A stretch of 64,000 bases of DNA from an uncultured Candidatus Saccharibacteria bacterium. GTDB taxonomy: Bacteria > Patescibacteriota > Dojkabacteria > JAOAGR01. The DNA lies in NCBI GenBank assembly GCA_964503755.1, contig CAZDBO010000001.1, positions 13,933 to 77,932 of the forward strand, read 5' to 3'. The notes beneath the pieces were generated by a model, which saw only the letters and a list, made by a program, of their open reading frames with translations, was not told where the DNA came from and searched no databases. Within the stretch, counting starts at the first letter, position 1; every line of letters starts with the position of its first letter. Made by a program: the position numbers and the translations under genes. Positions 7,045 to 35,771 of this stretch are shown one piece after another.

Positions 7045-8085
7045 TTATTTATTTGGCAACAAGATATTTTTCGTTTTTTCTGCTATTTCCTTAGCTAATT
7101 TAGCATCATTTTTAAGAGTTTCTTTTACCCCTTCCTTTCCATTACCTAACTGTTTATCTTCATATTTATACCATCCTGCATTTTTTTGTATCACACCGGC
7201 ATCGATAGCGGCAGAAATTAGTGATGAATATTTATCAATACCTTGTGGATAGATAATGCCAAATTCTGTTTCCCTGAAGGGTGGAGCTACTTTATTTTTA
7301 ACAACCTTTACTTTTACGGTATTACCAATTACATTTCCATCTTTATCCGTAATTTTTTCACCTTTTCTTATCTCTATACGGACAGATGCATAAAATTTTA
7401 ATGCATTACCACCAGTGGTAGTCTCAGGATTTCCAAACATAACCCCAATTTTCATACGAATCTGATTAAGGAAAATAACTGTAGTCTTGGATTTATTAGC
7501 AACAGCAGTCAATTTTCTGAGAGCCTGTGACATAAGTCTTGCTTGTACACCTATCTGAGCATCTCCCATCTCTCCTTCTATTTCTGATTTTGGGGTTAAT
7601 GCTGCAACAGAATCTATAACTATCAAATCTACTGCACCAGAACGTACTAAAGTCTCTGCAATTTCCAAAGCTTGTTCACCATAATCTGGCTGTGATATAA
7701 GCATATTTTCTACATCTACACCAATAGATTTTGCGTATTTAGGATCCAGTGCATGTTCAGCATCTATATAAGCAACAACTCCTCCGTTTTTTTGTGTCTC
7801 TGCTGCTATATGCAAAGCTAGAGTAGTTTTACCTGATGATTCTGGTCCAAAAATCTCAATTATACGTCCTCTCGGGACTCCACCAACACCAAGTACAATA
7901 TCAAGGGATAATGCACCTGTTGGAATCACCTCTACATTCTCAGCACTTTTATCACTCATCTTCATGATAGATCCTTTGCCGAATTGTTTTTCTATCTGAC
8001 TGAGCGCTGCTTGCAAAGCCGCCTTCTTGGCTGTATTTTGGGTAGACGCAGTCTGTGATGCCTGTATATTTTTATCTTCTTTCAT
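7045..8085 (-). CDS. recA: Recombinase RecA
   Basis: [15 protein letters not shown], Walker [14 protein letters not shown], and IDAEHALD are canonical RecA motifs. Confidence 0.95.
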
Positions 8086-8132
8086 ACTTACTAAGCATGA
8101 GTATATAATAACTTAAGCTTAATAAAAACATC

Positions 8133-9185
8133 ATGAACATTTTTATCCTTGGTCCTACTTCGACAGGAAAAACAAATTTAGCATTTTTTTGGGCAAAAAG
8201 ATTTAATCTTCCAATTTTTAATTGTGATGCAATACAGGTCTATAAAAACCTTAATAAACTAACAAATAAACCTAAATTTGATTCTCAAATCTTTTTAGAT
8301 GGTGAATACGTATCCATAATTGATAGCAATTCAATAAACGAAAATTTTTCATTAGAAAACATAGAAATACAGCTAATAACTCAAAATACAATAATTTCTG
8401 ATGTAAGTTTAGAACAGGCAATCAATTCACTCGAAAATTTAAACATAACAAAAACTTCATCAAATCAAATAAAAAACTTTCTATTTGATATTAAAAATCC
8501 TGGTGAAAATTATTCTGTGAAAGAATTTATTAATGATTTTGATAGGATAACTAAAAAATTCAAATTTACAAATAATCTAATTGTAGGCGGAACTATTTAT
8601 TACGCATATCATTTACTTTTTAATACTGAATTTGAGTATGATAATTTAAATGAAGAAACTAAAGATATTGACTTAGATACAGCAAAAAAAATTGTAGAAA
8701 GTTTTACCAATAAACACGGAATAAACTTAGATGTAAAAAATCCACGAAGAATAATTAAATATTACAAACTAATCAAAAATTATGGTGATGAATTTATAGA
8801 AATATATTACAAAAATCAAAAATTAAACAATGATTATTTAGTGATTTTACTACTGCCTAAAAATAGAGAACTATACTATCAAAAGCTCGATAATGTCGTA
8901 GATAAAAGATTCTGTGATGATTCGTTTGAAGAGATAAATTTTTTGCTTAAATCAGGCGTATCTAAATCTTGGTTAGAAAAAGTATCTTATGAATACAAAT
9001 ACTTTGTCAAAATTTATGAATTATTAAAAAATAATAAAAACAATAAACAAGATATAGACTATTTGCTTCAAGAATTAAAATACAAAGAGCACCAATATGC
9101 CAAAAGACAGATTACTTGGACAAGAAAGCTAAAAAGAGATTTATTAAGATTTAATAATCCCGCTACCAATAATCTCATCACCTGA
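8133..9185 (+). CDS. miaA: tRNA dimethylallyltransferase (MiaA) carrying a roughly 90-aa internal insertion
   Basis: N-terminal ILGPTSTGKT P-loop, DAIQVYKNLNKLTNKP, and C-terminal YAKRQITWTRK match MiaA signatures. Confidence 0.75.
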   Translation: MNIFILGPTSTGKTNLAFFWAKRFNLPIFNCDAIQVYKNLNKLTNKPKFDSQIFLDGEYVSIIDSNSINENFSLENIEIQLITQNTIISDVSLEQAINSLENLNITKTSSNQIKNFLFDIKNPGENYSVKEFINDFDRITKKFKFTNNLIVGGTIYYAYHLLFNTEFEYDNLNEETKDIDLDTAKKIVESFTNKHGINLDVKNPRRIIKYYKLIKNYGDEFIEIYYKNQKLNNDYLVILLLPKNRELYYQKLDNVVDKRFCDDSFEEINFLLKSGVSKSWLEKVSYEYKYFVKIYELLKNNKNNKQDIDYLLQELKYKEHQYAKRQITWTRKLKRDLLRFNNPATNNLIT

Positions 9186-14437: not shown

Positions 14438-16516
14438 ATGATTAAAAATAATATTTTTCTTTTTCTTTTAAATATATTTACTGTTTTAGTATTTATGGTC
14501 TCTATAACTCGTTTTCAACCAAACATAGTTACCGCGCAATCAGTAAATACAAATTCACAGTCTGTATATTTTAAACCAAAATCCAACAACGACATAGCCA
14601 ATCAAGATGGTGTAGAATTTAACCTTTTTGACAGAGAACTATGGGTCGGTACTGGTCAAGATTTAGAAAAGTCTTATCTAGGATTAATTACATATTCTGA
14701 TAATCTAATCAATCTAAACAGTCTAAACAAAGCATTTTTAGTATTTTTTGCAGAGAGAGAAGAATGGATTTACACAAAATTTGATATTTATCTTGAGGAT
14801 AGTAGAGATTTTTCACAGTATGATGTAAATAATCCTAATACTAAACCATCGATAAGAAAACTTACCACGTCATTTGTCAGTGTTGAAGAAGATGTCAAAT
14901 GGGAAAGAAGAAAAACGTACAAGTATGAAATTACAAATATTGTTCGCGAGTATTTGTTCAAATATGGAAGTTCTAACAAACTAAGTGTAATTGTTAAAGG
15001 TAGCTCTGATTCACCATTTGCAAGAAAATATCCTGCAACAAAGCTACAAAGTGCACCTTATATAGAAATTATTTTAAATTCCAGTGCCTCCTCACCAACA
15101 CCTACTTTATCACCAACAAATACATCTACACCAATTCCAACAAGACTCCCATCACCATCTTTTACTAATACTCCTACATCAATTCCATCATTTACTCCAA
15201 CAATCATCAATACTAATACCCCTACACCAGCAGATATATCAAGTGATATGAATATCAATTTAACTCCAAGTGGTGGATTCGGTCCCGGTAGGAGTAGTAA
15301 TCCTGAAGTTGGTATAAGATTAGATATATACAATGAACTAAGAAGAAGAGCTTTGTTAGGAGAATATGATAGACCATGTAGAGAAGAAGAACATGATCCA
15401 ACAAAATGGCATAGTTTAGTTAATCCTATAGCAAAATGTCATTATGATCATTTTCATGGTGATGATCCTACATATGTCAATGACATATTTGGAGAACCAG
15501 GTACATGGTTTGGTACGCCTGGCCAGGGCATATCACATCCATGGCAGACATTCCCAGCTAGAACAATGACAGAAAGTAATGAACAATATATACGAGAAAA
15601 AAGAATGGAAAATCATCTGAAGCACGAAGGATATGTCTGGATAGTAAGAAGAGATCAACCGTGCAACAATGAATATTGTGTTACAGATTTTAGAGTTCTT
15701 ATTCATAATTTAGAAATGCATGCATTTGGTGCAGCAACAAGATTTCATTCGGGTTATGGTGAATTTAGGGTATGTCAAGACAAAAATAGGCCAGAAACTT
15801 GTGGAATTATCAGGACTGGTGGTTGGCTTGATCATGGAAATCTTATAACACCTCCATCAAACACCAATTGCTGGGAATCAAGACAGGAAAATATTGGATT
15901 AATAAGGCTTAATGCTGACAATCAATATTATCCATTTTATGATCCAGATTTGATAGACGAATTTAGATGTCACAAACCATTAAATTCTACAGAGATAAAT
16001 AGAGGTCCAACTTTAGTTGGCAATAGAGCTCCTGCAGAATGGTGGGCACATGGTGCTAGTGATTTTAGGTACCAATTTTTAGTGTACAATCCAATTGGTA
16101 ATGTCACAGAAACATCGCCAGGAAGTGGTGTTTTAAGAATGCATGCATATTGCACTCCAGAACAAAACAACTGTCGTTGGACTCAATCAGTATTTACGAT
16201 ACGTATTGCTTATATATTACCAGTTAACAGTTATTTTGTTGAAGGATTTGTAAATGGAAATAGAGTAAACCTACCACTTGGGCAAAGATATATAACTAGA
16301 TTCGGTGAGATAAACCCAAACTGTTCTAATGCTGGACTTGATTGTATACCTATCGAATATAGCAACCTTACATTAAATACAAATCCAAATTTAGGTCTTG
16401 CAGGATACAATCACGAATCTTGTGACTTCTGCGAAAAAGTTGACCACGATCTCACACCGCCTGAAAGACCATCTTGGATCAGATGGTACTACAAGTTATT
16501 TAATATGAATCATTAA
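14438..16516 (+). CDS. Secreted protein with Pro/Thr linker and a C-terminal Cys/Trp/His-rich domain, hypothetical
   Basis: N-terminal signal/TM. Linker SPTPTLSPTNTSTPIPTRLPSPSFTNTPTSIPSFTPT. C-terminal roughly 380 aa with more than 12 Cys and many Trp/His (CHYDHFHGDDP). Confidence 0.55.
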   Translation: MIKNNIFLFLLNIFTVLVFMVSITRFQPNIVTAQSVNTNSQSVYFKPKSNNDIANQDGVEFNLFDRELWVGTGQDLEKSYLGLITYSDNLINLNSLNKAFLVFFAEREEWIYTKFDIYLEDSRDFSQYDVNNPNTKPSIRKLTTSFVSVEEDVKWERRKTYKYEITNIVREYLFKYGSSNKLSVIVKGSSDSPFARKYPATKLQSAPYIEIILNSSASSPTPTLSPTNTSTPIPTRLPSPSFTNTPTSIPSFTPTIINTNTPTPADISSDMNINLTPSGGFGPGRSSNPEVGIRLDIYNELRRRALLGEYDRPCREEEHDPTKWHSLVNPIAKCHYDHFHGDDPTYVNDIFGEPGTWFGTPGQGISHPWQTFPARTMTESNEQYIREKRMENHLKHEGYVWIVRRDQPCNNEYCVTDFRVLIHNLEMHAFGAATRFHSGYGEFRVCQDKNRPETCGIIRTGGWLDHGNLITPPSNTNCWESRQENIGLIRLNADNQYYPFYDPDLIDEFRCHKPLNSTEINRGPTLVGNRAPAEWWAHGASDFRYQFLVYNPIGNVTETSPGSGVLRMHAYCTPEQNNCRWTQSVFTIRIAYILPVNSYFVEGFVNGNRVNLPLGQRYITRFGEINPNCSNAGLDCIPIEYSNLTLNTNPNLGLAGYNHESCDFCEKVDHDLTPPERPSWIRWYYKLFNMNH

Positions 16517-17405: not shown

Positions 17406-19927
17406 TTGATGCAATACAAACAAATATCAGATGTCATAAAAGAACTAGATGTAGATATAAATCGTGGACTAGATTCTATAGAAGTATCCAAAAGACAAAA
17501 AATCTATGGTCTCAACAATATAAATTTAACAGAAGAAAGTAATATAAAAATCGTTCTACGTCAATTTCTAAATCCTTTGGTGATAATACTTATTATTGCA
17601 TCAATAATCGCCCTAATATTTGGTGAATATAAAGATTTTATTTTTATCCTGATTATTGTTTCTATTAATGGAATAATAGGATCAATACAAGAAATACAAG
17701 CAAAATCAAAAATTCACGAATTATTAAATCTATCTAAACCCAAATCAAGAGTAATCCGTAATGGTCAAATAATAACTATTCAAGATTCAGAAATAACTAT
17801 AGGTGATGTACTTATCCTAAATGAAGGTGACATTGTGGGAGCAGATGCTAGATTGATTGAGTCAAATAATCTAACCGTTGACGAATCCATACTTACAGGA
17901 GAATCATTACCAATCTCGAAATTTGCTGATAAAGTTTTAGAAGAATCCACTCCAATTTATGAAAGAGAAAATATAGTATTTCGTTCCACAATAGTGCTCA
18001 AAGGTACAGGAAAAGCCATAGTCTACGCTATCGGACCAAATACCGAAGTAGGTATAAAATATACTCTAAATCAAAAGGTAAAGAAGCCAAAACACCACTT
18101 ATAAAGGCAATTGATAGATTTTCCAAAAAACTAATTTTCATAGTTATTTCAATAATGCTATTTATTTTCTGCATTGGATTATTACAAGGGCGAAATATTG
18201 AAAATATATTTTTATTAATCCTAGCGCAGCTAGTCTCTGCTATACCCGAAGGACTGCCGATAGCAATAACCATAGCTTTGGTTATAGGATCGTTTATTTT
18301 ATTTAAAAAGAAAACTTTAGTCAGATATTTACCTGCAGTCGAATCTCTAGGTAGTACAACATTTATATGTACAGACAAAACTGGCACTCTTACAGAAAAC
18401 AAATTAACAGTAGAGAAGGTATTTACAGATGATGATAACATCACAAATTTACTTTTTACTTTATGTAATGACTCAAGTCTCGAACACGGAGATCCTCTTG
18501 ATATTACATTACTAAAATATCTAAAAAATAAAGAAATTAATATATCCGAAATCAGATCAAAATATGCACAAAAATGGCTCCTTCCATTCGATACCAAAAT
18601 TAAACTGATGGCTAGTATAAATGATATTGATGGTCAAAATTATTTATTTGTAAAAGGAGCTTTTGAAACTCTTAGCAATCTAGCAGAAAACAAGAAAGAT
18701 CTAGAAAAATACGGAAAGATTCACGATCAAATGACGGAACAAGGTCTTAGAGTAATAGCTTTTGGATATAGAGAAACTGATGAGATACCAGTTAACATAT
18801 TAAACGAAAAAATTAAATTGATTGGTCTAGTCGGGTTTGTTGATCCGCCAAAGAAAGATGCTGAGAAAGCGATCAAGAAAGCGTTGCAATCTGGAGTAAA
18901 CATAATAATGATTACAGGTGATAGTTTAAAAACTGCTCTAAAAATTGCGTCTGATGTAGGAATACACACAGAAGGCAAATTATTTTTTGAGGGTAAAGAT
19001 CTAAATAAATATACAGATGAACAACTTTATGAAATATTAAAAAAAACATCCGTCATTGCTCGAGCCATCCCTGACGATAAATATCGTATTGTAAATATAC
19101 TTCAAACAAATGGAGAAACAGTTGCTGTAATGGGAGATGGAGTCAATGACATACCTGCCATAAAATCAGCAAATCTAGGCATTGCTGTCGATACTGCATC
19201 AGAAGCAACAAAATCAGTTTCACGAATTATACTAAAAGAAAGAAATATTTCTGTAATAATAGATGCTATCTATATAGGTCGTCAGATATCCCACAATATA
19301 CGAAAGGTCATTGGATTTTTACTTTCTACAAATATCGGTGAGATATTTTTTCTTGGTACCGCAATGATACTAAATTTTCCTCAACCACTATTTCCAACAC
19401 AAATTTTATGGATAAATCTAGTTACTGATGGCATAACTGACAAAACATTAGTTCTTACAAAAGAAGAAACATGGACTAGATCACTAAAACCAAAGGTTTT
19501 TAATACATGGTTTTTAGATAAATCACAATTAATAAAAATAATCTCATTTGCAATCTTTGTTGCAACAGTTAATTTGTTGATTTTCAATTATCTATCTAAA
19601 TCAACAAATTATGAACAAGTCGTAACTGTTATATTCTTCTGTATGGTTGTTGAACAGTGGGCATTTGCTATCCAATCAATTCGAGAAAAACCATTTTTTT
19701 CTAATTTCATAGAAAACTTCCAACTAAATCCCTATATTTATCTAGCAATATTATTTATCGGAATTCCATTGCAAATAATAGCTTATTTATTCTTCCCTGA
19801 AGTTTTATATATGACACAAACAAATACTCATCTACTTATCTTTTATCCGACATTAGTATTTATATCGGCGTTTATTTTTTTGGAAGTTTTGAAGATGTGG
19901 ATTAAGAAAAGATTAAATCGGTGTTAA
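17406..19927 (+). pseudogene. Cation-transporting P-type ATPase (P2-type), interrupted by a frameshift near 18060-18110
   Basis: Two ORFs, 17406-18104 and 18155-19927. Motifs CTDKTGTLT, MITGD and GDGVNDIPAIKSANLGIAV. The TPLIKAIDRFSKKL segment lies in the +1 frame across an A-run at about 18070, indicating a 1-nt indel. Confidence 0.8.
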
Positions 19928-20140
19928 AATATATTTAATTTTTACCAGAGTTTAATTGAAATATAAGATCTGATAAAATTTATCTTATTTTGAATTGATT
20001 TAAAAACTTATACAAAAATTGAAGAAAATTTCAAAATATGATTATCTTATATAGTAAAGTTAAAAAATGGTTGGTAACAATTTAATATATTTGCACATAA
20101 AAATAGTTAATCAAAATTAATATTTCAATTTCGTAATAGA

Positions 20141-21969
20141 TTAAGTCTGATTAAGTCTGGATTCTAACTTTAAGAAAAAATCTTCAATTTTTTTAGTCAT
20201 ACTTGTTATTTCATCATCTGTTTTACGTCCTCTAAATTCTTGTTTAATCTCTATAATACCTCTTTGTACTAAACCATCTTTTAATTCTAAAAAGGATGTA
20301 TATAACTCTTTCTTTCTACCTAATATCATTGAATACAGATTAATTATAAATTCTGTATCATCATCACTTGATAACACATTCCAAACATCAACAAATTCTC
20401 TAATAAAAGTCTCTGCATCCACGCAAAAGGGTATCCTTATTTTTTGCAGTTTATCGATATCTAATGATTAGATATATCTTTTTATTTCTTCATCTAAAAA
20501 TATAGAATGTTTATCTAAGACTAAATTAATATAGACTCTTCTATTGAATCCATTATTTTTATTTCTCCTAAAATCATCTACGTGCTCTAAATCTCCAACA
20601 AATACATTAAAAAAATTTTCAATCCTATCTAACATAGAAATAAAATTTCCTAAAGATTTGAATTTTTCTATTTCTATTATCACAGTAACTAGTTTTAATG
20701 CGTCATCATATGATAATGATAATTTTCTAATATTTAGAAACTCTTTTATTTTATTTACTTTATTTTGATCATAACCGACTTTTCTCCATAAATCTTACAA
20801 TGCTAGTAATGTTTTACCATCTATTTGATCTATTGGAACAACTTCTGCTATCCTTTTTTTCATTTCTTGAAAAGTTCTTGACGTAAGGCATGGATATATA
20901 AGATAACTTTTATCCAGACTAAGTTTTGTTAATAAATCCATACTGATAAGAACATAATCTTTCATATCTCCTATATCACCTTTGATTTTCGGATCATTTT
21001 GTTGTGTATAAAACAAATACTCAGGTTGTGCTAATGATAAATTTCCTGAAATTATGTAAGCTACTGTTTCATGCCTAAAATGATCAAATATTTCGATGCT
21101 ATGAATTGGTGTAGTCGGTAAACTATTTTCAAAAGATTTTCTATGAATATCACCTAAACACATCATATGCCAGAGTATATGATGAATTTCGTGTTGCAAT
21201 TCTAGGAATTCTTCTCTATTATATTTTCCATTTATTCTAATAAAACTAGGTGCGTATAGTCCTAAATAGGGCATAGCTGGCGTTAAACGCTGTCCAAATC
21301 GTTCTTCAACTAAATTATCAAATTTATCATCGGTTTCGATAATGAATAACCCAGGAATAGGTTCATATAAAACACATGTATTTTTCAAATTATTGTATAA
21401 ATCTACATCATCTTGCATTGTACATTGTAGTACATCATATAGAACATAATCATAGTAATCATAATCTTTTTTATTGAACCATGGATGTATACTCTTAAAA
21501 GAATATCAAGTTTATCATAGTCTGGAAATTCTTTTTGATATTCTTCTAATAGTTCTTTATTTCTTAATAATTTACCAGCTATCGTGGGAATAATACTTGC
21601 TACGAACAACTTTCTCAACTGATCAGGCATTTGATTTAATAATTTCTGTATTTCAGCATTTTTTTCTTTTCCAACAAATTCAGATAAATCAATGTTAGAA
21701 TTATCAGTTACAGAATCAGTTCTTAATTTAGTTCCAGATTCGATTCCAGACTCAGTCCTATACTCAGTTCATTGTTCGGTTTAAGATTCAATTCCAGACT
21801 CTAATTTGCTTTTTTGCTCTTTAAATCTTTCAATACAACAATTAATAATCCCTAAATAAAATAGTCCCGTAATTTCTGATATTTTTCTTAGTGCATTCCT
21901 ACGAGACTGTTCAGGCGATTTTCCTAATTCGTCTTCATTTCCTATATCAACTCGTCGAATAGCAAACAA
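20141..21969 (-). pseudogene. Disrupted gene for an HExxH-motif (zinc-metallopeptidase-like, ImmA/IrrE-like?) protein; five ORF fragments
   Basis: Fragments 21781-21969, 21403-21630, 20795-21418, 20468-20683 and 20141-20422 are co-linear. The last three share one frame separated only by TAA codons. A frameshift lies in a T-run near 21500, and an in-frame TGA and TAA lie near 21650-21780. HEIHH motif at about 21170. Confidence 0.55.
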
Positions 21970-22102
21970 ACCATCATCTTGTGCTTCAGGCTGTGAATGC
22001 AGACGATCATACCACCTTCTGTTATAAATCTTGATGTAGCTTATTACAACACATTAAATTTTAATTCAAATATTATAATTTAGATAATTTTACATATTTA
22101 TC

Positions 22103-22179
22103 TGGTCGGGGAGAGAGGACTTGAACCTCCGACCTCTTGGTCCCAAACCAAGCGTTCTAGCCAACTGAACTACTCCCCG
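22103..22179 (-). tRNA. tRNA-Pro (anticodon UGG)
   Basis: Reverse complement folds as acceptor CGGGGAG/CTCCCCG, D arm GTTC..GAAC, anticodon stem CTTGG/CCAAG with loop TTTGGGA, T arm AGGTC-GGAGG..., encoded CCA. Confidence 0.85.
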
Positions 22180-22260
22180 TCTGTACCTAATGATACCATA
22201 TCAATACCAATTCTTAAAAATTTTTAAGCATATTTATAGTTTATTTGGTATATTATACAA

Positions 22261-24099
22261 ATGAATAACTTTACATTTTCTACAGAATTAGAGTTAAGTG
22301 TTATTATTCACAGACTGAAAAAACTTTTTGAAATTTATAGAGAAATATCAGAAGATCTTTCTACAACAAAATTTTATCCTGCCATAATTTTCAATGAAGA
22401 TTTTTGGCGTAGTCCTTTTGAAAAGCAAAAGATTATTCTGATGCAAAATATCAATAGCTGGTTAGGATTGGAACCATCTAGATTTAGCTTTTTTTATATT
22501 GATGAAATGTACATTGATGTACTTTATTCACTAAAACTTTCAATGTTTTCTTATTCAAAAGTCTCATTCGAGACACTACTCAATGTGCTTACAATAAAAA
22601 CAAAATTTTCTATCACTGAATTTACAGATTTGGGTGAGCCTAATAATGCGAAAACTTTTATTAATAACCTAATTAGTAAAATTCAAAAGAATGAAGAAAA
22701 TACAAATTATCATAGTGATGTCTTTTATGAAATTTTATCTGAAAAAATGAACAATATAAACAAGAACAAAATTGAAGTTCTTTTAGTGTTTAAAGCCTGG
22801 AATACAACTGGACTTTTTAAAATTTTAGAAAATATAAAAAGCTTAAATACAGAAAATAAATCAAAATTATTTCAAATAGACATAATTTTATTTAAGTTCA
22901 AATTTTACTCCGTAAAAGAGGAAATTATTTCTATTATCAAATCTTATGAATCAGATTATATAAAAATAAACCTAGAAACGGTTTATGTTTTAGACTATAG
23001 TGTCAATACAACACGAAAATATGATTTGATATATTACGAATATTTATTTGGATTTTTACCTAGCGATGTTGTATTAAAATATTCAAACGTTTATTATTCG
23101 AAAAAAACGCGATTATCATATCTCAAAAAAACGCCATTATCAGAATCATTAAAAGATATTGCAAAAATACAAAATCCTCTAAATCCCAAAATAGAGAAGA
23201 GCAAATTTAGATACATAGCGAAAGAATCCATATGGACAACATATCAAAATCAAATAATATCTGAGCTTGTAGATACTCTTACGCCAATAGAAGGTGATAT
23301 ATATCAAGTATCCGTTACGTTACTCACGATATTTATAAAAACAATAGAATGCTTAGAGAAAAATGGAATTTTTATAATCTCTGATTATATAGATCTACCT
23401 AATGCGTATATAGATAACCTAAATATAGTTGATGATGTGGGTTATCAAGTATCTGTAGTAGACATGCAAGTAATAAACGAGATTGTGAAAAAAAATGATG
23501 AATATACAAAATATGAATTATTAGAGTTAACAGAGAATAAATTCATTTCTTATCATATATTTTTAAATAATGAAAAAAAGAATAAATTAATATTCTTTGA
23601 TGATCTATATCAATACTTTACAAAAGATATTTTATTTGGCAAAGAAATCTTTAATATAAAAAATTTTACCTTTTATGAAGAATTAAAAAAAGAGCTATCA
23701 CAAATAAAAAATCTTCAAAAAATAACTCTAAAACAATGGCCAATAATATCACAAATTATCTATAAAAATATTTTAATCAAAAAGTACAAAGATATATTAG
23801 AAAAATTGTCAAAAAAATATCAGATCCTGAAAGATTTAGAAATTGATACAGATAGAATCAACAACTTAAAAGATATCATATCGTTTAATATTTTTAATAA
23901 ATTTAAAAACGAATTAAAAGATAAAAAAAACGAAATCATCGTCATACCTCACAATGAAAATATATCTAAAGAATGGGATAATTTACTAAAAACATACAAT
24001 TTCAATCCAGATAAACTTTACAAATTACTCAAAAAATACACAAAGATTATTAATAAATATTCATGCAAACCCAAAAAAGTAATAATTAAAAAATTGTAG
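22261..24099 (+). CDS. Hypothetical protein, 612 aa, Lys/Asn/Ile-rich
   Basis: Long ORF, no recognisable motif. Adjacent to tRNA-Pro. Confidence 0.45.
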   Translation: MNNFTFSTELELSVIIHRLKKLFEIYREISEDLSTTKFYPAIIFNEDFWRSPFEKQKIILMQNINSWLGLEPSRFSFFYIDEMYIDVLYSLKLSMFSYSKVSFETLLNVLTIKTKFSITEFTDLGEPNNAKTFINNLISKIQKNEENTNYHSDVFYEILSEKMNNINKNKIEVLLVFKAWNTTGLFKILENIKSLNTENKSKLFQIDIILFKFKFYSVKEEIISIIKSYESDYIKINLETVYVLDYSVNTTRKYDLIYYEYLFGFLPSDVVLKYSNVYYSKKTRLSYLKKTPLSESLKDIAKIQNPLNPKIEKSKFRYIAKESIWTTYQNQIISELVDTLTPIEGDIYQVSVTLLTIFIKTIECLEKNGIFIISDYIDLPNAYIDNLNIVDDVGYQVSVVDMQVINEIVKKNDEYTKYELLELTENKFISYHIFLNNEKKNKLIFFDDLYQYFTKDILFGKEIFNIKNFTFYEELKKELSQIKNLQKITLKQWPIISQIIYKNILIKKYKDILEKLSKKYQILKDLEIDTDRINNLKDIISFNIFNKFKNELKDKKNEIIVIPHNENISKEWDNLLKTYNFNPDKLYKLLKKYTKIINKYSCKPKKVIIKKL

Positions 24100-24263: not shown

Positions 24264-26024
24264 TCAGATGGAAAAATAATAATTTTTATTAATCTTAGGC
24301 ACATAAAATATAATCATCAAAAATGTTGTTAAAAATAACACATTTATAAATAGATAAAAAAATAATATTACTAAGAAATAAAAATTTGGTTTTATTAATA
24401 CTTTCTCTTTATGTTGATCTAAGATTTCAAGTTCTGAATCAGTATTTTTAATCTCTATATTTATCAGTTCAAATCTTTCTTGATATATTATTTCCCCTAT
24501 TTCTACTATTATTTCCTCTGATTGAAAAGGAAACATAAAAACATTTCGGTATTCAAATGTTTTATCACCAAGTTTTATAATTATTGTCAAATTTTTGTGT
24601 ATCTTTCCAGATATATTTTCTATGCTAACTATGAATTGATTTTTATTTATTTTATCTTCAGTAATCTGATATTCAAAAGATTGATCATTTTTATTATTTA
24701 TCTCTCGAATAGGTAAAACGCGTATTTTATCTGCAATCAAAAAGAAATTACGTACATTATTTTCCCACACTCTAAAATCCCCAAATTTGACATGAGTATA
24801 TGTCAGTCTATCTATATAATAACTGCCCTCAGATGTAAAATACCATACTGGATTGACGCTTACCCATCTATCTTGTATCCAAACTTCACTCCAGATAAAT
24901 GGTATTACTTTTATTTCCTCATCTCGAAATGGTGTTATTGGATAAACAAAACCATAACTACCTCGGGTTGTATATCCCAATTTTTCCATTTCATCACGAA
25001 ATATAAAATTTAGTATAAAAGGATTTACTTTATTTTCCCCATATTGGTCTCGAAATGTTTTTGAAAGAATATCAGTATTAGCAGCAATATTGATATCAAT
25101 CAGTTCTAATGTTTGGTAAAGTTTTTGTAAAACATTTTCTATATCTACCAAATCATTTTTAGCTAAATTTTCTTGATTATTGCGTGTTCTGATAGGATCT
25201 ACTTTTTCAAAAACTCTATCATAAGCTGATGATGTAAAGATATATCCTTCTACCTCATCATTTTGCCTCAAAGTTATATTTTCATTATCATCTATTGTAT
25301 TATTTTCGATCTCTGGAAACTTTGTATAAATAACATTTTGATAAGAATTTTCTACAGGTAAGGAAAATTTTGCATCTGATAATTCATTTTTATAATAAAA
25401 TGAATAGTTCTGTTTATCACCAAATAAAGCAACTATATTTTTAGTATTTACAATATCTCTAGTAATTTTTATATTTGTATAATCATTTTCTGTATTTACT
25501 AAATAACTTTTTGAAAAAACATGAGCCAGTTCTCCAAATTTAATAGGAACTCTAATATTTATTTCAAAATTATCGAAAGAATTATTTAGATCAAAATTCG
25601 GTATAATAAGTGCATATTGTGATCCATGTTCATAAAAAGCAGAATCAATATTCATACTTACACTCCAATCAAATCCCGCATTCAAACCTATTAATCCATC
25701 AGTAAACTCAATTGCAATTTCATAATTATTATTTTCATTTTTTACTAAATCTATAATTTTTATACCAACATCTTTTGATGATGCATTGATATTTTTTGGC
25801 TCAAAAGGTACTTCTAGACGAAATAATCGTATTAATGTATTTTCTCTCAGATTAATTGTTTTTACATCTATACGTAGTTCTACGTTTTTATCATCTTTAA
25901 CATTATAGTATGCAACTGCTTCATGAGAATATTCTTTTTCTGCAAATACGGTATTAAATTTCGATATAAAAAAAAGGCAGAAGAATATAAATAACAATAA
26001 AAAAATGTATCTTCTCACTTTCAT
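24264..26024 (-). CDS. Secreted/anchored hypothetical protein (N-terminal signal, C-terminal TM)
   Basis: Signal-like N-terminus and C-terminal hydrophobic anchor. No catalytic motif recognised. Confidence 0.45.
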   Translation of the reverse strand: MKVRRYIFLLLFIFFCLFFISKFNTVFAEKEYSHEAVAYYNVKDDKNVELRIDVKTINLRENTLIRLFRLEVPFEPKNINASSKDVGIKIIDLVKNENNNYEIAIEFTDGLIGLNAGFDWSVSMNIDSAFYEHGSQYALIIPNFDLNNSFDNFEINIRVPIKFGELAHVFSKSYLVNTENDYTNIKITRDIVNTKNIVALFGDKQNYSFYYKNELSDAKFSLPVENSYQNVIYTKFPEIENNTIDDNENITLRQNDEVEGYIFTSSAYDRVFEKVDPIRTRNNQENLAKNDLVDIENVLQKLYQTLELIDINIAANTDILSKTFRDQYGENKVNPFILNFIFRDEMEKLGYTTRGSYGFVYPITPFRDEEIKVIPFIWSEVWIQDRWVSVNPVWYFTSEGSYYIDRLTYTHVKFGDFRVWENNVRNFFLIADKIRVLPIREINNKNDQSFEYQITEDKINKNQFIVSIENISGKIHKNLTIIIKLGDKTFEYRNVFMFPFQSEEIIVEIGEIIYQERFELINIEIKNTDSELEILDQHKEKVLIKPNFYFLVILFFYLFINVLFLTTFLMIIFYVPKINKNYYFSI

Positions 26025-26818
26025 TATATAGTAAAAATTAGTAATGAAATCAATAAAAGTAAAGTATATAGCTGCAAAAATAAGTCTATATTTAATTTTT
26101 TATGTATAAATGCAAAAAATAAAAGATAAGAAAATAAAAAAAGAACAAATTCTATTATAGTATTTACTATTAAATTCTTTGTAAAAAGATTAATAAAAAC
26201 AAAAACCAAAAAGATTACAGTCACTACAGACAAAAAAATGTTTATATAATCTAGTCTATTTTCTCTATACAATCTTATCAAAAAATAAATGAAAGCTATG
26301 CAATAAACAATAATGAAATAATGATCTAAAGTAGAAAAATTTATGCTAATAAAAAAACTAAATCCTAAAAATATCAAATATATGCTCCAAAATTTATAAC
26401 TTACCTCAATGCTATGCATTGGATGAAATTTAATATCTCCAAAATGAATACTTTTTTCTTTTTTATGAATCAAGAAATATAGATAGAAAGAATATATTAT
26501 CGAATTTAATATAATAAAAACTAGATTAATAAAATAAGTTTCAACACTCAAAATAAAAAAACTTATTCCTAAAAACGTAAAAAGAGTATAAATCATATGT
26601 TCAACTAAAAATTGTCTATGCTTAAATACATTGTAGTTTATTAAAAATCGAGAAGTAAAATAAAACTCAACTATATTGATTAAAATTACCAATAATATTA
26701 ATAAATAATTGTGTGTAAATCTAAAAATTTCCAATATATACAATAGTAAAAATGATTGGATAAATCCATAAAAAACAGACCTTAAAAGCTTTTTATTTGT
26801 AATAATTTTAATGCACAT
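26024..26818 (-). CDS. Polytopic membrane protein, hypothetical
   Basis: Multiple hydrophobic helices. Overlaps the downstream gene by 1 nt, so probably an operon. Confidence 0.4.
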   Translation of the reverse strand: MCIKIITNKKLLRSVFYGFIQSFLLLYILEIFRFTHNYLLILLVILINIVEFYFTSRFLINYNVFKHRQFLVEHMIYTLFTFLGISFFILSVETYFINLVFIILNSIIYSFYLYFLIHKKEKSIHFGDIKFHPMHSIEVSYKFWSIYLIFLGFSFFISINFSTLDHYFIIVYCIAFIYFLIRLYRENRLDYINIFLSVVTVIFLVFVFINLFTKNLIVNTIIEFVLFLFSYLLFFAFIHKKLNIDLFLQLYTLLLLISLLIFTI

Positions 26819-28417: not shown

Positions 28418-29680
28418 ATGGTCAAGGATAATACACGTAAAATATTGATATTTATCAATTTTTCTCTACTTTTGTCGGTATTAACTGTTGCATTTTTTAT
28501 CGCGTATATAATTAATTCATTATCTTACTCAACAAATGCAGTTTCAAAAAATGTATATGTTATTCCTTCATTTCCTATAGATAAGGTCAATAAAGTTTTT
28601 GAAAAAGCAAAAATAGCAAATCAGAATCTATCTACTATAATCACTACAGGGATAGAAATTGACACCGAAACAAGACAGAATTTTTACGAATTATTAAAAT
28701 ATAATAATACTTACGGTTATTTTATGCTAGCAGGTATTCAGGATAATTCGCCGGTTAAATTTTATTCTATTGATGAAATGCAAGCAAAACAAATTATAAA
28801 TCCTGGTCATGAAGACAGTTTAATTCGATTAAAACTTTTATTTGATTATTTTGCCAAACAGACAGAGTCAAAGGTAAGAGGAAAGGATTTATATCTTCCT
28901 CATATTGGAATAAAATTTTATTCAGGTGAGACTTTTGAAATTTTAAATAACTATGGTGCACCTAGTAAATCTATAACTTTAGATGAGGATATAACTATTG
29001 AAATAAATAAATTGCTTTATAAAGATGGATATATTTATGTCACTCCATCAAATACTTATTCTAGGGACGCATATAGGTCTAGTCCCAATGATTTATTTAT
29101 TAAAATAAGTTTAGATAAGGCTATTGAACGATTGAGTAATGTTACAAAAGCAAGTACTGTAATGGCAGATCTTATTTACTATTGGGCGAAAATGAAAAAC
29201 ATACAAGCGGGAGAATATTTTTCAAGAAATAATTATGGTTATATAGAAGATAAAGTTTATTTATACAAAGTTTTAGGACTTGATGATAATAATTATGATA
29301 AATATGTTTATGGAGGAGCTCTAGTGGGAGGAGTAGACTCATTTGTAAGAGCGGGTGGGGTTTGTTTTTATGCGACTCTTTGGAGTACAAATTTAATCAT
29401 GGGATTAGACACATTTAATCTGGATTATAAGATTGAACATCTTGAAAAACATAACAGAGTATGGATTAGATATATGCCTAAAACAGTATGGCCATATATA
29501 CAGGATTCTTGGGATTATTATGATGTGTCTGTATTTTATAATCCTTCGTTAGGTGGTTTTGGACTGACTTTGCAGATGCCAGAAAATGTAGGTGCTAATA
29601 TTCGTTCTAAAGTATTATATGCTGATGAACAAACGGGAAGGCTGATTATTAATATGGAGTTTGAGCCTGTTTATAAGTAA
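28418..29680 (+). CDS. Hypothetical exported protein with N-terminal TM anchor
   Basis: ORF with signal-anchor. No recognisable motif. Confidence 0.4.
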   Translation: MVKDNTRKILIFINFSLLLSVLTVAFFIAYIINSLSYSTNAVSKNVYVIPSFPIDKVNKVFEKAKIANQNLSTIITTGIEIDTETRQNFYELLKYNNTYGYFMLAGIQDNSPVKFYSIDEMQAKQIINPGHEDSLIRLKLLFDYFAKQTESKVRGKDLYLPHIGIKFYSGETFEILNNYGAPSKSITLDEDITIEINKLLYKDGYIYVTPSNTYSRDAYRSSPNDLFIKISLDKAIERLSNVTKASTVMADLIYYWAKMKNIQAGEYFSRNNYGYIEDKVYLYKVLGLDDNNYDKYVYGGALVGGVDSFVRAGGVCFYATLWSTNLIMGLDTFNLDYKIEHLEKHNRVWIRYMPKTVWPYIQDSWDYYDVSVFYNPSLGGFGLTLQMPENVGANIRSKVLYADEQTGRLIINMEFEPVYK

Positions 29681-29991: not shown

Positions 29992-32562
29992 TTAGTTATT
30001 ATAAGTTTGACCAGCAAAATTTCTTATTTCATCAATCGTTAATGCTCTATCATAAACTTTGAATTCGTCTAGGAAACCGTTGTAATAAGTATTATTATAT
30101 GGGTTATAACCAATATGGTAATCTTTATTATACAGACTAATAACATCAGTACCTATATTTACAGATTTATTTTCCTGACCATTAATATATATCTTCAGCG
30201 TTCCACTTGACTTGTCATATACAAAGGCAACATGTGTATAGGTATTTAAAGGCAGAGTATAGTCGGCAGTTACTGATCGACTATCTGTATCTCGATCTTT
30301 TTTATATTCAAAACTTATTCTATCGTCATAACCATGTACTGCTATTCGAAATCCACCAAATCTATTGATAAAGTTACCCCATACTGCTTTGCTTGCACTT
30401 CTATCTATACGAACTGGCTGTAGATAAAACATTATTGTAAAGCTGTTTGCAAATATTTGATCATTGTTGGTGAGATCGACAGTAAGATATTGTTGTTTTG
30501 TAGCATCAAATCGTATTCTTTTGTATCTGTTCTGCACAACAGGACTATTAACAGATTTGAAATTAACACTTAAATTACCAGAATTATTAACATTGCGTGA
30601 TATTGATGTATCAAATGGTAAATATATTGCAGGGTTAGAATTGTCGGTTATTATCCTCTCTGTTGGAGTGGGGCGTGTAGTTGATGTTACAGGAGCACTT
30701 GGCATTGGATCCAAAGATGGTGTAGGACTGTTCGTGGTTGTTTGTGTTGGTGTGGATGTAATAGTAGGTAAAATAGTCGTTGTTGTACTTGGTGTTGATG
30801 ATATATTAAATTCGAATGCACCAATATCTGGTAAATTTAGTATTCTTTTTCCTTCTAAGTCTACTTCTATACTATGTCTAATACCTTTATCTATTAAGGG
30901 TGAATTGCTTATAAGTCGATAATTATCATTATTCACATCGACAAATAACGGATCATCTAAAATTGCATTTGGGTCAACATCTCTGATACTGTTTGACCTT
31001 AGTCTTGAAAAATCTTCACGAAAATAAGCATTATTTGAAAAATTTTGTATAGGTCGTGTATGCCCTGAGAACCCAATCGAATTTAGCGCAAATATATTAT
31101 TATAAAATCGATTTGATACTTCAGATCCATAATAAAACTGTATTGATTTGTGATTTTTAACTACGGTATTGTTGAATATTTCATTATTTTTACTGTTTGC
31201 GTGCCCAATATGAAGTCCCGCATTAGTATTTTTATAAACTAAATTATAGTAAAACTTGTTATTATCACTGTATGATGATGATATAAAAAATCCCCTCCTA
31301 TTTTCATATGACATATTGTTATAAAAAACATTGTTGTCAGTCCTACCATATTTGGGTTTTTGTGCTGTTGGTTGTCCACCCCATATATGTAGACCACTAT
31401 TTCTGTGTTTAAATACCACATTTCCTGCTATAACATTGTTAGATGAACTTTGTAGAGGAATACCATCACCTTCACCAAAGTAGTTAGTATTGTTGTTTGA
31501 ATATACAGTATTATTTAATACAAAAGTATCTTGGGTATACCTTATATATATTCCATCACCATTATTAAACACAGTATTATTTTTAATTACACTTCCACGC
31601 ATTGGGATACCTGATGTATAACCCTCCGATAAGATTCCGGGCATTACATTATTGTAAACTCTATTTCCTTCAATAAGATTATAACCAAGATTTGAAAACC
31701 TTTCTTCTCTCACTAACATTCGAATTCCTTCTTGTCCATTATCCCGAATTTCAGAATTTCTTATCGTATTGGATCTTGTGTGTTGTAAATATATTCCACT
31801 ATACCTTGCCTCTGAAGATATAATGTTTTCTATATTTATTTGAGAATTGACACGATTTGGATCATCATTCGTTATCCATATATTATGCTGATTAGCACCG
31901 CGAAAATGTATGTTTCTAATAGTAATATGAGAATTGTTTTTTATATACAGTAAATTATTTATTAGAGATATTTCCAATCTATATTCAGTTATTGGTCTTG
32001 ATAGGTATACATACAAATGTCCGTCTGTATTAGCGACTCTGCTATAGTAATCTTTATAGTAGTCACCATCATTTACTAATGAATTAATATTTTTCTTCTC
32101 TGTACCTTTTTTACCATTTACTATTATGTTGCCGGCAAATGTTTTTATCTTGTATACATTTGCTCTATTTGCAGAAGGTTGCCATTCATTTGCATTTGTA
32201 AGTTTTGTACCATCTATGATTGGTAAATTACCACTACCATATGCGTCTATAACAATTCTATTTCTTTCATTACCAGATCCGTTAATTTTTAATTCTTCTT
32301 TAAAAACAGATCCTCGTTTCAGTAAAACACGGTCACCAGGATTTAAAGTAATTCTTTCTAAATTTTTTAAGGTCTTCCAAGGTCTACTTTCAGAATCACC
32401 ACTATTAGTATCATTACCATTCTGTGAGTCAATATAATAAGTTTTAAAATTAGCACTTGTAAAAGTAAAAAAATTTCCAAATGTAATAAAAAGCATAGCA
32501 ATAATGGACAAAGATGCAAGTAACATTATTGAAAAAACAACTAGCTTTTTATTTTCTAACAT
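29992..32562 (-). CDS. Surface protein: beta-helix (pectin-lyase fold) repeats, Pro/Thr linker, and C-terminal LamG/concanavalin-like domain
   Basis: Signal peptide. Repeats NNTVFNNGDGIYI/NNTVYSNNNTN/AGNVVF. Linker STPSTTTTILPTITSTPTQTTTNSPTPS. C-terminal LDEFKVYDRALTIDEI typical of LamG-type jelly-roll. Confidence 0.65.
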   Translation of the reverse strand: MLENKKLVVFSIMLLASLSIIAMLFITFGNFFTFTSANFKTYYIDSQNGNDTNSGDSESRPWKTLKNLERITLNPGDRVLLKRGSVFKEELKINGSGNERNRIVIDAYGSGNLPIIDGTKLTNANEWQPSANRANVYKIKTFAGNIIVNGKKGTEKKNINSLVNDGDYYKDYYSRVANTDGHLYVYLSRPITEYRLEISLINNLLYIKNNSHITIRNIHFRGANQHNIWITNDDPNRVNSQINIENIISSEARYSGIYLQHTRSNTIRNSEIRDNGQEGIRMLVREERFSNLGYNLIEGNRVYNNVMPGILSEGYTSGIPMRGSVIKNNTVFNNGDGIYIRYTQDTFVLNNTVYSNNNTNYFGEGDGIPLQSSSNNVIAGNVVFKHRNSGLHIWGGQPTAQKPKYGRTDNNVFYNNMSYENRRGFFISSSYSDNNKFYYNLVYKNTNAGLHIGHANSKNNEIFNNTVVKNHKSIQFYYGSEVSNRFYNNIFALNSIGFSGHTRPIQNFSNNAYFREDFSRLRSNSIRDVDPNAILDDPLFVDVNNDNYRLISNSPLIDKGIRHSIEVDLEGKRILNLPDIGAFEFNISSTPSTTTTILPTITSTPTQTTTNSPTPSLDPMPSAPVTSTTRPTPTERIITDNSNPAIYLPFDTSISRNVNNSGNLSVNFKSVNSPVVQNRYKRIRFDATKQQYLTVDLTNNDQIFANSFTIMFYLQPVRIDRSASKAVWGNFINRFGGFRIAVHGYDDRISFEYKKDRDTDSRSVTADYTLPLNTYTHVAFVYDKSSGTLKIYINGQENKSVNIGTDVISLYNKDYHIGYNPYNNTYYNGFLDEFKVYDRALTIDEIRNFAGQTYNN

Positions 32563-32594: not shown

Positions 32595-35500
32595 TCAAAT
32601 ACTGGATGTTTCTATATATAATGAATACATTCTTTGTAGCGGACTTACAGATGGATATGTTGGTACAGTGTACAAACGAATTCTACGTGTACTTTTGCTT
32701 GATAAGGGTTCTGTATGGTCATTATAAAGTAGTACATTCTCACTACTATTTTGACCATTAGTATTGTAAGCAATCCAGTACGTAGTGTTTGGTTCTAGTA
32801 CTATGTTTTGTGAAGATAGATCTACTGTTTGCCATTCTTTGTTTTGATCAAGCATCAGACCACGTGTTTTGTATATTATATTTCTTGGGCGATTATTATA
32901 GTTACCGTATATTATTATCTGGTAAACGCGATTATTTCGTAATCTACTTATATTTTTTACTGCTATATTAATTTTATTTATTTTATTTCTGTAATTACCG
33001 TTTGTTATTTTAATGAAAGTCAATCTGTTAGAATTTCCACTATCTAATTTTGTCCCTAAAGAATTATAACCTAATATGGTTTGATTTGGATTGGGTATAT
33101 TTGTAGGTGTTGGTGTGTTTGTGGGTGATGGGGATAAAGTGATAGAAGGAGTCATTGTGATTGTTTGGGTTGGAGTATTAGTTGGAGAGAATGGTGTACT
33201 AGTTGGAATTGGGGAATTTGTAGGAATTGGTGTACTAGTAAAACTTGGTGTTATGGTCATTGTTACAGTTGGAGATATAGAGGGAATAGGATAAGATATA
33301 TATTGTGGTGGAATAGGAAATGGTAATGGCATTCTTAGTCCCATGTCCTGTTCCACAAATAAATAGAAATCATTAAATCTAGTCTTAGGCACTATAAAAT
33401 CATTGTAGTTTACGCTTGAAAATACATTTTGAGGTTGAGTGTATGATGGCGCATTATTTTCATCATATTCTAATTCTAGATGAACATTTATTACATCTGT
33501 ATTCAAGAAAAATTTGATTACATTTTCTCCTCTTACAAGATGATCTTTATTTATGATAATTCCAGTTGAATGAGGCAAATATATATCAGCAATTACCAGC
33601 ATTGCAGGACCATTTATATTATCGTTTGGATTGGGGAAATTGTATCTATTTCCATTTATTTCAATGTAATGATTTGAGCTCCATACATATGTAGAATATC
33701 TGAGAGGATTTATCGTAAACATTAATCGTGCTTGACGCGGTGATCTTATTTCGTCGGGAATGATTATTTTTGACGTTCTATTGCCTTCTTGAATAGGATA
33801 GTTGGGATGTCCTGTAGCTATCTGAGGTATATTTCCGGTTTCACCACCGTCAATATAATTGTGTACTTTACTGTTTTGTCTTGGGCCTGTAAAGCCAAAA
33901 TTATCCCAGTCCAAAAGAGCCATAGTGGGTTTTATTTTTGGACTAACAAACTCAAAATCCTTACCTGTGGTGTAAGAAAATATTTCTGATATAACATGAT
34001 ATTTTGTGATATTGCGTAAGTATTCTGGTGTTGTTGCTGATGCCACTTTAATGCCATTTATAAATAAAACGATTTCTTGCGTTGAAAATTCAATTACCCA
34101 TTGTCTTCGAACGTGAGGATATGTTTGTAATGTAGCATCTGGAAGAGGAATAGGGCTATATTTGTTTGTTCTGATCCAGTTATTTTTGTTAATATCACAC
34201 CACTTTAGATCAACTTTTGTATCGGTCCATCCTTGACAAGTATAGTTTAATCTTAATTTGTATGGATTCCTATTATAATCCCATGCATGAAATGATATTT
34301 CATTAGCAAATTGAGATATTCTAAACATTCTTCCGGGATCGTTTTTGTCACTTTGAAAGAAATCGTTATGACCTACTAAATCAACAGGTATACCGTTTTT
34401 TCTGGCATCTACTGGAACAAGATCTATATACCAAATGTCACGATTTCTTGGTGATCCCGCACTATCCATTGTTATCACTGCTGGATTTGATGTTGTTGCT
34501 CCTGTAGTGTCAAATATAGCTCTAGCACGTGATGCTGATGCTGATCTATCACAGTAAGGTAGATCACTTGTTGTATCAACATAAGATGATCTTGCTCGTA
34601 CTTTGTTGTGAACATGTGTTCTATTTATAAAGTATCCATTTTCTCCAGGATCAGAACATCCTCTGTATGCTGTATTCCATTTTATTTCATCAGGATTACC
34701 ATTTGCTATATTGAAATCATCAAAAAATGCAGTCATTTTTGATTTTAGAAAGTCAATTCTTTCGGAAGTAGGTGTGGCAATTATATAAACCCCGGGAGAA
34801 TAATTTCCATCAGCTACTGCAAATTCACCCTGATAAGTAACACCATCACGTGTAACACTACTCTGTATGCGACCAGTTACACTGTGTACAGAAAATACGT
34901 ATTCTACACCGTTTTCTAATGGTTGAACGTGAACTTGGTTATAAATAGTCTGTATTTGATTTGTAAAAAGTCCTTCAGATCTTTTACCCCATCTGACAAC
35001 GTATCCAATTATGTTATAAGAAGATGCATTAGGAACATAATCCCATTGTAGCGTAACCATTCTATCGTCTGGAAATGCTTTTACATTTGAAGGTACTGGT
35101 ATAGAAGATATTTCTGCTGCACTTGTGAAATTTGTATCAAATCTGTTGAAAAAAATAAGCATAACAAACGCGGATAATATCAATATTCCCACTAAAACCA
35201 ATGATAATAGCTTGTAATTTGAGAATAGTTGAAAAATATTCAATTTGGATTGTATTGACTTTATCGATATGAATATAATTATGATATCAAGGACTAATGA
35301 TAAACTAATAAGAAAAATATTTGATTCCGCAAATTTTATAATGTCCTCAACCGGACTTGGTGGTAACAAATGTTGATCAAGTTTGTATTCTATATAATCT
35401 GATTCTATATTAATGCTAAACTTCGTTTCTTCGTTGTTTTTTAAAATGAAAAAATCGTTATTTCCTTTTTTAACGTTTGTTATATAGATAAAACCATCTT

Positions 35501-35729: not shown

Positions 35730-35771
35730 ACTAGAATTGATTATAACACATTTTTTGATAAATTTGTAAAT

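Follow-up and report, generated by a model that had tools for sequence, protein, structure and literature searches.

The gluzincins of clan MA(E) are zinc hydrolases that combine an HExxH motif with a downstream glutamate, and their metal is held by the two histidines of the motif and that glutamate. Phages and conjugative elements reportedly encode large 'polyvalent proteins' with enzymatic modules, which Iyer et al. are said to have described in 2017. Both serve here as comparisons for a broken gene at positions 20141-21969, on the minus strand, of a 64,000-nucleotide (nt) stretch (the window) from an uncultured Candidatus Saccharibacteria bacterium placed among the Dojkabacteria by GTDB (assembly GCA_964503755.1, contig CAZDBO010000001.1, positions 13,933 to 77,932). 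The gene belongs with a family of hypothetical proteins with an invariant HExxH motif, of which we found no description in the literature on HExxH in Patescibacteria or on Dojkabacteria pseudogenes. We put at roughly 0.85 the probability that the gene is a genuine and fairly recent pseudogene, with several lesions, of this unnamed family centred on the candidate phyla radiation (CPR).

Translation and the open reading frame (ORF) listing of 19800-22400 place ORFs 20795-21418, 20468-20683 (open to 20794) and 20141-20422 in one common minus-strand frame, split by TAA codons at 20795-20797 and 20468-20470. From 21499 to 20141 this frame comprises 453 codons with three stops, the two just named and a terminal TAA at 20141-20143. 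A second frame accommodates ORFs 21403-21630 and 21781-21969; it is read from a TTG at 21969 and, apart from TAA 21781-21783 and TGA 21769-21771, stays open until it closes at 21405. The two frames are offset by 1 nt, and a single A inserted into the A6 run at 21467-21472, which reads as a T-run on the plus strand, fuses them to give IHGSIKKDYDYYDY. The shift could lie anywhere in 21406-21499, with the homopolymer as its likely site. In all these points a first-pass annotation of the DNA had the arrangement right: the shared frame of the three ORFs, the TAA and TGA between the two upstream ORFs, and a 1-nt frameshift in a T-run that links 21403-21630 to 20795-21418. Only its length was off, with about 520 codons open apart from two TAA codons against the 453 measured, or 426 for the three listed ORFs by themselves. 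The remaining two minus-strand frames over 20141-21969 contain 52 and 77 stops, and among 2000 shuffles of 20141-21499 the best of three frames always held at least 24 stops (mean 37.8), compared with 3 observed. The low stop count of the gene's frame is far beyond chance. When joined across the frameshift with its stops masked, the translation is 627 amino acids (aa) long, and it contains an HEIHH motif encoded at 21179-21193.

To find the family to which the gene belonged, the 234-aa stop-free stretch encoded by 20798-21499 was used as the query for an exhaustive HMMER search of 1.84 billion representative proteins, from which 39 proteins emerged at E <= 1e-3, 5 of them with E <= 1e-10. Most matches are 510-550 aa long and are matched at about residues 120-330, and the same domain occurs inside a few giant proteins of 3938, 3419, 1797, and 1583 aa. 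Sources with names are hypothetical proteins of Patescibacteria group bacteria and Candidatus Microgenomates, such as MBU2524347.1 and MEK7644408.1 (Patescibacteria group bacterium) and MBI2040382.1 (Candidatus Microgenomates bacterium), and multi-domain proteins of Candidatus Omnitrophota. A motif scan of GTDB genomes with the family alignment found 10 loci and added Saccharibacteria, Doudnabacteria, and Elusimicrobia to this range. The same scan with the window fragment gave no match, a word-index protein search with the 207-aa product of ORF 20795-21418 found only the ORF itself, and tblastn within the window detected no paralogue of the gene.

An end-to-end alignment was obtained between the stop-masked window protein and 18 full-length members of the family. 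Fragment 1 (Table 1) aligns with an N-terminal helix of consensus RKIAxExGxFYNxLxD, in which the G and Y are near-invariant, and fragment 2 with the region LPxxxRxLYxxG…ELxxNHxLLxxHRGxE. Fragment 3 carries the family motifs EPxPG, HExxH, FRxExxAY, and YPxMTSRxFxELK in the form of EPIPG, HEIHH, FRHETVAY (21056-21079), and YPCLTSRTFQEMK. The alignment continues unbroken over TAA 20795, and a near-invariant tryptophan two residues past this stop is kept in fragment 4. A single TAY-to-TAA change would explain the stop, given the residues that homologues have in this column. Fragment 5 ends about 11 residues past the usual C terminus of the family. Eight residues (E221, G225, H278, E279, H282, R317, E319, and Y323) are invariant in all 19 sequences, the window copy included, as is F471 in the end-to-end alignment, and the H, E, H, R, and E remain invariant over 32-34 sequences. 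The central HExxH pointed out in the first-pass annotation is therefore the invariant core of the family.

A hidden Markov model (HMM) of 510 positions, for which the window sequence was left out and only the 18 intact members were used, gives the stop-masked window protein 183.8 bits, in one envelope that runs from HMM position 43 to 507 and spans the frameshift junction. When scored separately, the five fragments are collinear on the model, from HMM 10-53 for fragment 1 to HMM 421-507 for fragment 5. Because the fragments align collinearly with a single family, they represent one gene that has been broken. The first-pass annotation had proposed one gene in pieces and had stated beforehand that failure to obtain a continuous alignment to any single family would count against this proposal; such an alignment was obtained. 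Judged by its alignment, the gene is a member of an unnamed family of ~515-residue HExxH proteins found mainly in Patescibacteria. It is collinear with the intact 510-550-aa members over its full length, keeps EPxPG, HExxH, and FRxExxAY, and has its C terminus at nearly the same position. It differs from them in being only 16-24% identical over the full length, in having the lowest family HMM score, and in carrying an insertion of ~45 aa with repeats of the ESGIES or TESGIESG type, a linker that occurs in none of the 18 homologues and that encloses the first two lesions (TAA 21781-21783 and TGA 21769-21771). With four in-frame stops and one frameshift, it also lacks the intact ORF expected of a functional family member.

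Several observations indicate that the lesions are genuine. Window positions 20480-21555 are matched without a difference (100% identity) by an independently assembled Logan contig, SRR11582145_270122 (1076 nt), so that the frameshift site and TAA 20795 are both reproduced in a second assembly, and the exact 207-aa ORF is also called on this contig. TAA terminates 24 of the 41 long ORFs of the window and is therefore a normal stop here, without reassignment. The damage in the window is clustered in accessory genes (this gene, the adjoining ATPase gene, and the interval 53.1-59.6 kb), whereas recA, miaA, mnmA, dnaN, radA, ilvA, and the genes for an aldolase and several peptidases are intact, a distribution that random sequencing error would not yield.

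These results can be set against three other explanations. It is very improbable that the organism has an intact gene for a protein of ~610 aa and that errors of sequencing or assembly introduced the stops and the frameshift. In favour of error, the sequence comes from a metagenome-assembled genome, a homopolymer contains one of the lesions, and three of the five are known from a single assembly; however, the Logan contig carries TAA 20795 as well as the frameshift site, a homopolymer indel accounts for one of the five lesions and substitutions for the other four, and error would have had to strike this gene five times while sparing RecA, DnaN, MnmA, RadA, and about 35 further long ORFs, and to be concentrated again in the accessory genes at 53-59.6 kb. 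Still harder to credit is a full-length protein made by readthrough or by recoding of TAA. Although TAA makes up three of the four in-frame stops, and the one at 20795 falls in a tyrosine column and is one base from TAY, the TGA and the frameshift would need to be bypassed as well, and no suppressor tRNA is present among the three tRNAs of the window. Recoding of TAA was rejected, as TAA is the main genuine stop of the window. The gene could also be split instead of dead, with the 207-aa ORF 20795-21418 acting as a stand-alone enzyme that has the whole HExxH/R-x-E core, whether or not the remaining fragments contribute. This ORF begins with ATG, contains every invariant catalytic-type residue, and is predicted as a protein by gene callers; the 234-aa stretch is modelled as a compact domain (pTM 0.83); and shorter, domain-only proteins exist in the database (P0045, 142 aa; P0046, 195 aa; P0020 and P0023, 313-349 aa). 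However, these short entries may be fragments from short contigs, and translation from the ATG at 21418 would leave out the first helices that, in full-length members, pack against the domain. By eye there is no Shine-Dalgarno-like sequence just 5' of this ATG, and a promoter and terminator scan, itself uninformative with fewer promoter-like sites than in shuffles, singled out none. The adjoining ATPase gene and several other accessory genes show similar decay, and we regard a working split gene as improbable, if less so than sequencing error.

The extent of the damage allows a rough estimate of when the gene was lost. The window copy retains all family-invariant residues. About 6% of the possible single-base substitutions in the sequence create a stop, so four stops would correspond to ~64 substitutions or ~3.5% neutral divergence (a rough figure, n = 4). 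The nearest sampled relatives differ by 18-22% in DNA, a comparison that suggests a recent inactivation. In the pseudogene model, the ancestor would have been a single gene of ~610 codons from the unnamed HExxH family. TAA 20795 and TAA 20468 would be nonsense substitutions, the other TAA and the TGA would have arisen in the lineage-specific linker of 12-nt repeats, and one nucleotide would have been lost from the A-run. The slot between the frameshifted P-type ATPase gene and the 3' end of tRNA-Pro would be a site where accessory content turns over and where the HExxH gene is being lost. Gene decay of this kind is ordinary as a phenomenon.

The predicted structure of the family bears on its possible chemistry. 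An AlphaFold2 model of the intact homologue P0017, calculated with the family alignment, has a pLDDT of 92.2 and a pTM of 0.86, and a model of the window's own domain has a pLDDT of 86.1 and a pTM of 0.83. Family members consist of an N-terminal helical region, a central domain, and a C-terminal helical region. In both models, four β-strands are followed by the helix with the HExxH motif and then by the next long helix, where an invariant R-x-E lies ~35 residues on. DSSP applied to the P0017 model places the strands at residues 134-137, 145-148, 168-171, and 181-185 and the motif helix at 204-220, with H208, E209, and H212, and the window domain has the same layout. The invariant glutamate on the next long helix of the predicted models, a candidate third metal ligand, is E245 in P0017 and E144 in the window domain. 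An HExxH helix that follows a small β-sheet, with an invariant glutamate ~35 residues on in the next long helix, is also the arrangement in gluzincins (the thermolysin-like clan MA(E), including M1, M2, and M48). Unlike them, the family has only non-significant Foldseek matches (E >= 0.14, TM ~0.2) and no Pfam peptidase match. On the basis of these models, the family may be described as putative gluzincin-like metal hydrolases, an assignment for which we consider the odds to be even. By analogy, intact members would be zinc-dependent hydrolases, most likely peptidases.

A number of results weigh against this picture of a pseudogene from a zincin family. The zincin assignment has the motif and the secondary-structure layout as its whole basis. 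Foldseek searches of PDB and BFVD found no significant neighbour (best E about 0.1, TM ~0.2), the top PDB matches of the domain being the gluzincins ACE2, DPP III, and aminopeptidase N (E 0.14-1, TM ~0.2), none of them significant. The family is recognised by no profile library that we searched. Pfam gave no match to the stop-masked 627-aa protein or to the 18 homologues even at E <= 0.1; NCBIfam, PADLOC, and PHROGs gave scattered noise in single members, none of it consistent; sequence profile searches of PDB with full-length and domain-only queries found no match; and hhalign detected no relation between the domain profile and one M48 and one M32 peptidase sequence. In neither sequence nor structure did the family show significant resemblance to a recognised peptidase family. 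As for the gene itself, the window copy is the most divergent member of the family (183.8 bits, compared with 235-610 for intact members in leave-one-out scoring) and comes from a lineage that is divergent and AT-rich; its low score reflects some decay or a long separate history, which are indistinguishable. The exhaustive HMMER search and the 207-aa word-index search found no close orthologue, intact or broken, and the ancestral state at each lesion is consequently deduced from homologues that are 20-34% identical. The match of fragment 1 to the family HMM is weak (HMM 10-53, 5 bits, E 4e-4 in a one-sequence test), and TAA 20468 (the Logan contig ends at 20480) and the TAA/TGA pair at ~21770-21783 have been seen in one assembly only.

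The first-pass annotation had compared the HExxH site to ImmA/IrrE or SprT and had proposed a Pfam run on the stop-masked translation. That run was done and, as described above, returned no match in any of the 19 proteins. For ImmA/IrrE (M78), there was no Peptidase_M78 match at E <= 1, and 19928-22102 contains no ORF for a helix-turn-helix (HTH) partner. SprT/WLM had no Pfam match in the 19 members, with SprT appearing only as a non-significant BFVD match (E 0.68). What the window protein has in common with these families is the HExxH motif and possibly a general zincin idea, but it is three to four times longer and has no adjoining HTH repressor gene. Because no profile matches, membership in ImmA/IrrE or SprT is unsupported.

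The gene occupies a slot between the gene for an inactivated P-type cation ATPase and tRNA-Pro(UGG), which lies 133 nt upstream of the TTG start at 21969 on the same strand. Five related contigs share the conserved order recA-miaA-mnmA-cobW-M29-…-693 aa-ATPase, and the proteins of the window's neighbouring genes link it to 'Candidatus Dojkabacteria' metagenome-assembled genomes. The intact 845-aa ATPase orthologue of these relatives maps onto two window frames, and DNA alignment identifies a 2-nt insertion (TA, 18053-18054) that separates the ATPase gene into pieces 17406-18104 and 18155-19927. After the intact ATPase gene, the relatives have a Type III restriction-modification pair, res (967 aa) and mod (~640 aa), followed in the two contigs that reach it by tRNA-Pro and then a 611-aa orthologue of window ORF 22261-24099. 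DNA homology between the window and these relatives (78-82% identity) ends at 19905 and resumes exactly at 22103. The relatives have no remnant of the HExxH gene in the slot, and the window slot has no remnant of their restriction-modification genes. The slot content therefore alternates between relatives, with breakpoints at 19905 and 22103, and the slot 3' of tRNA-Pro is variable, in agreement with the earlier suggestion of a hotspot beside the tRNA. In the relatives (L003-L007, 15497-20337), res has ResIII, DEAD, and RE_endonuc domains and mod has an N6_N4_Mtase domain. L005 and L006 have an unbroken mod gene (644 and 630 aa); gene calling yields it as pieces of 234 and 364 aa in L004 and L007 and does not report it in L003. 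The broken or absent calls could possibly reflect phase variation or decay. Contigs of five Logan assemblies terminate in or beside tRNA-Pro, where L002 and L014 start and L005, L006, and L007 end, which suggests that the assembly graph branches where the tRNA adjoins the variable slot, through either strain heterogeneity or a shared tRNA sequence.

Intact family members are found in varied neighbourhoods. At L009 and L010/L011, the member lies between a relA/spoT-type gene on its upstream side and aspS, which follows directly. In these loci from two divergent Patescibacteria (L009, 8001-10930; L010, 8001-11784; and L011), the flanking genes encode aspS/asnS (tRNA-synt_2) and HD_4/RelA-SpoT proteins. 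Synteny with aspS as a rule for the whole family was rejected, as it holds for L009 and L010/L011 and not for the other loci. Further members lie near clpB, near thyA/folA/msrB, near a racemase gene, or near tRNA clusters. In L020, tRNA-Pro(CGG) at 2-75 precedes a member at 194-1738, 119-188 nt downstream on the same strand, and in L019, tRNA-His at 6774-6852 precedes a member at 6956-8521, ~100-150 nt downstream and again on the same strand. This tRNA-to-gene arrangement mirrors that of tRNA-Pro(UGG) in the window and is commoner than tRNA density would predict.

A further reading, that of the first-pass annotation, is suggested by the position of the gene: a mobile element or defence island may have inserted at tRNA-Pro, and the gene would be a decaying part of its cargo. 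As in tRNA-adjacent genomic islands, the gene lies directly 3' of a tRNA in a slot whose content alternates between related genomes, here with a Type III restriction-modification pair. The contigs that stop at tRNA-Pro, the two further members directly downstream of a tRNA, and the combination of the family domain with ART-PolyVal and a methyltransferase in one relative (P0035) also speak for cargo. However, the slot lacks the integrase, att-type direct repeat, and compositional signature of such islands. A 24-nt query from the tRNA 3' end, with 3 mismatches allowed, found only the tRNA itself, so the direct repeat that had been suggested as a check is missing, and, the 12-nt coding repeat aside, the repeats in 19-23 kb are short, AT-rich, and attributable to chance, and none meaningfully flanks the slot. 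No integrase or transposase is present in 19928-22102, nor any integrase-sized ORF in the slot, and its GC content of 27%, compared with 29-30% for the window, is no compositional deviation. PADLOC (19 members) and PHROGs gave no consistent match, so PADLOC lends no support to membership in a known anti-phage defence system, and a motif scan of IMG/VR viral contigs found no relative. Intact homologues sit in housekeeping neighbourhoods, twice directly upstream of aspS, and the linkage to a tRNA seen in distant genomes could equally stem from old synteny or from tRNA-targeted insertion. An origin of the gene as mobile or defence cargo appears unlikely. Within the pseudogene interpretation, the gene may have been ancestral at the slot and now be in the course of being lost, or may have been acquired there; the evidence fits both histories.

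The giant relatives of the family connect it with polyvalent proteins. In P0035 (1797 aa), the family domain stands beside ART-PolyVal and a methyltransferase. The Omnitrophota proteins with the domain are 3938 and 3419 aa long, and the larger, P0014 (L013, 11147-11539 and 13184-14002), has two HExxH domains, TPR repeats, and kinase-like and HPr-like regions. These combinations hint at use as an effector-type module. A near-match in BFVD is annotated as a 'large polyvalent protein associated domain' protein (E 0.077). The family thus resembles polyvalent proteins in the embedding of its domain in P0035 and in the giant Omnitrophota proteins, but Pfam MPTase-PolyVal does not match it, it has no PHROGs or IMG/VR relatives, and its stand-alone CPR members are chromosomal and single-domain. 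As a tentative and rather doubtful proposal, it would represent an undescribed, CPR-centred family of metal-dependent HExxH enzymes with a fold that has no significant match among solved structures, deployed both as a stand-alone protein of ~515 aa and as a module of giant polyvalent-like proteins in Omnitrophota and other ultrasmall bacteria. Such a distribution would fit a part in how these host-dependent bacteria interact with their hosts, with the pseudogene recording the loss of the family in one Dojkabacteria lineage. The pseudogene itself is of little weight. It indicates that a reduced Patescibacteria genome still sheds accessory genes, at no fewer than three separate loci in 64 kb, and that gene content turns over 3' of tRNA-Pro, where sister lineages have a restriction-modification system. 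The uncharacterised family has modest follow-up value: with dozens of members, an invariant HExxH…R-x-E, a predicted structure of very high confidence that is apparently unmatched, and no Pfam, NCBIfam, or PDB counterpart, it is a defined and testable target for assigning function to CPR 'dark matter'.

Table 1 Features of the broken gene, its slot, and a second region of decayed genes (window positions).
Feature	Position	Strand	Evidence or remark
Fragment 1, N-terminal helix region (ALRKISEITGLFYLGIINCCI)	21784..21969	-	TTG start 21969; upstream frame open to 22023
Window-specific insertion, ~45 aa (ESGIES…TESGIESGTKLRTDSVTD)	21704..21799	-	Degenerate 12-nt tandem repeats, spacing 12/24/12
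Fragment 2 (MPDQLRKLFVASIIPTIAGKLLRNKELLEEYQKEF)	21473..21768	-	Frame of fragment 1; HMM 40-88, 14 bits
Lesion 3, A6 run (T6 on +) lacking one A, frameshift	21467..21472	-	One A added gives GSIKKDYDYYDY
Fragment 3, catalytic-type domain, including the 207-aa ORF 20795-21418	20798..21466	-	HMM 113-320, 115 bits
Lesion 4, TAA	20795..20797	-	Alignment column 461: Tyr 12, Phe 4, Trp 1, Ala 1 of 18 homologues
Fragment 4 (DLWRKVGYDQNKVNKIKEFLNIRKLSLS)	20471..20794	-	Frame of fragment 3; HMM 324-393, 14 bits
Lesion 5, TAA	20468..20470	-	Variable column, C-terminal helical region
Fragment 5, C-terminal helical region, native stop TAA 20141-20143	20141..20467	-	HMM 421-507 of 510, 25 bits
tRNA-Pro(UGG), right-hand slot boundary at its 3' end, 22103	22103..22179	-	ARAGORN; Rfam RF00005, 69.3 bits
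P-type cation ATPase, inactivated; 3' end is left-hand slot boundary	17406..19927	+	Pfam on both halves
N6/N4 DNA methylase, at least 4 frames	58697-59513	-
DUF6996+DUF6997 protein, two in-frame stops	57915-58697	-
Weak Sir2 remnant	~56901-57188	-
Two broken TMEM43-like genes	55401-56512, 53770-54941	-
Truncated NTPase_I-T/DUF84	53136-53621	-

Elsewhere in the window, ~6.5 kb of degraded genes lie at 53100-59620 on the minus strand (Table 1), by tRNA-Ser(CGA) at 59623-59712, and this interval looks like a decayed restriction-modification or defence island beside a tRNA. Six ORFs of 264-692 aa (22261-24099, 24264-26024, 26024-26818, 14438-16516, 28418-29680, and 61062-62576) have no Pfam match and are conserved in the related Dojkabacteria contigs. 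Large β-helix proteins are encoded at 2872-6177 and 29992-32562, the latter with an additional Laminin_G_3 domain, and the large ORF at 32595-35798 has a fibronectin type III domain as its only match.

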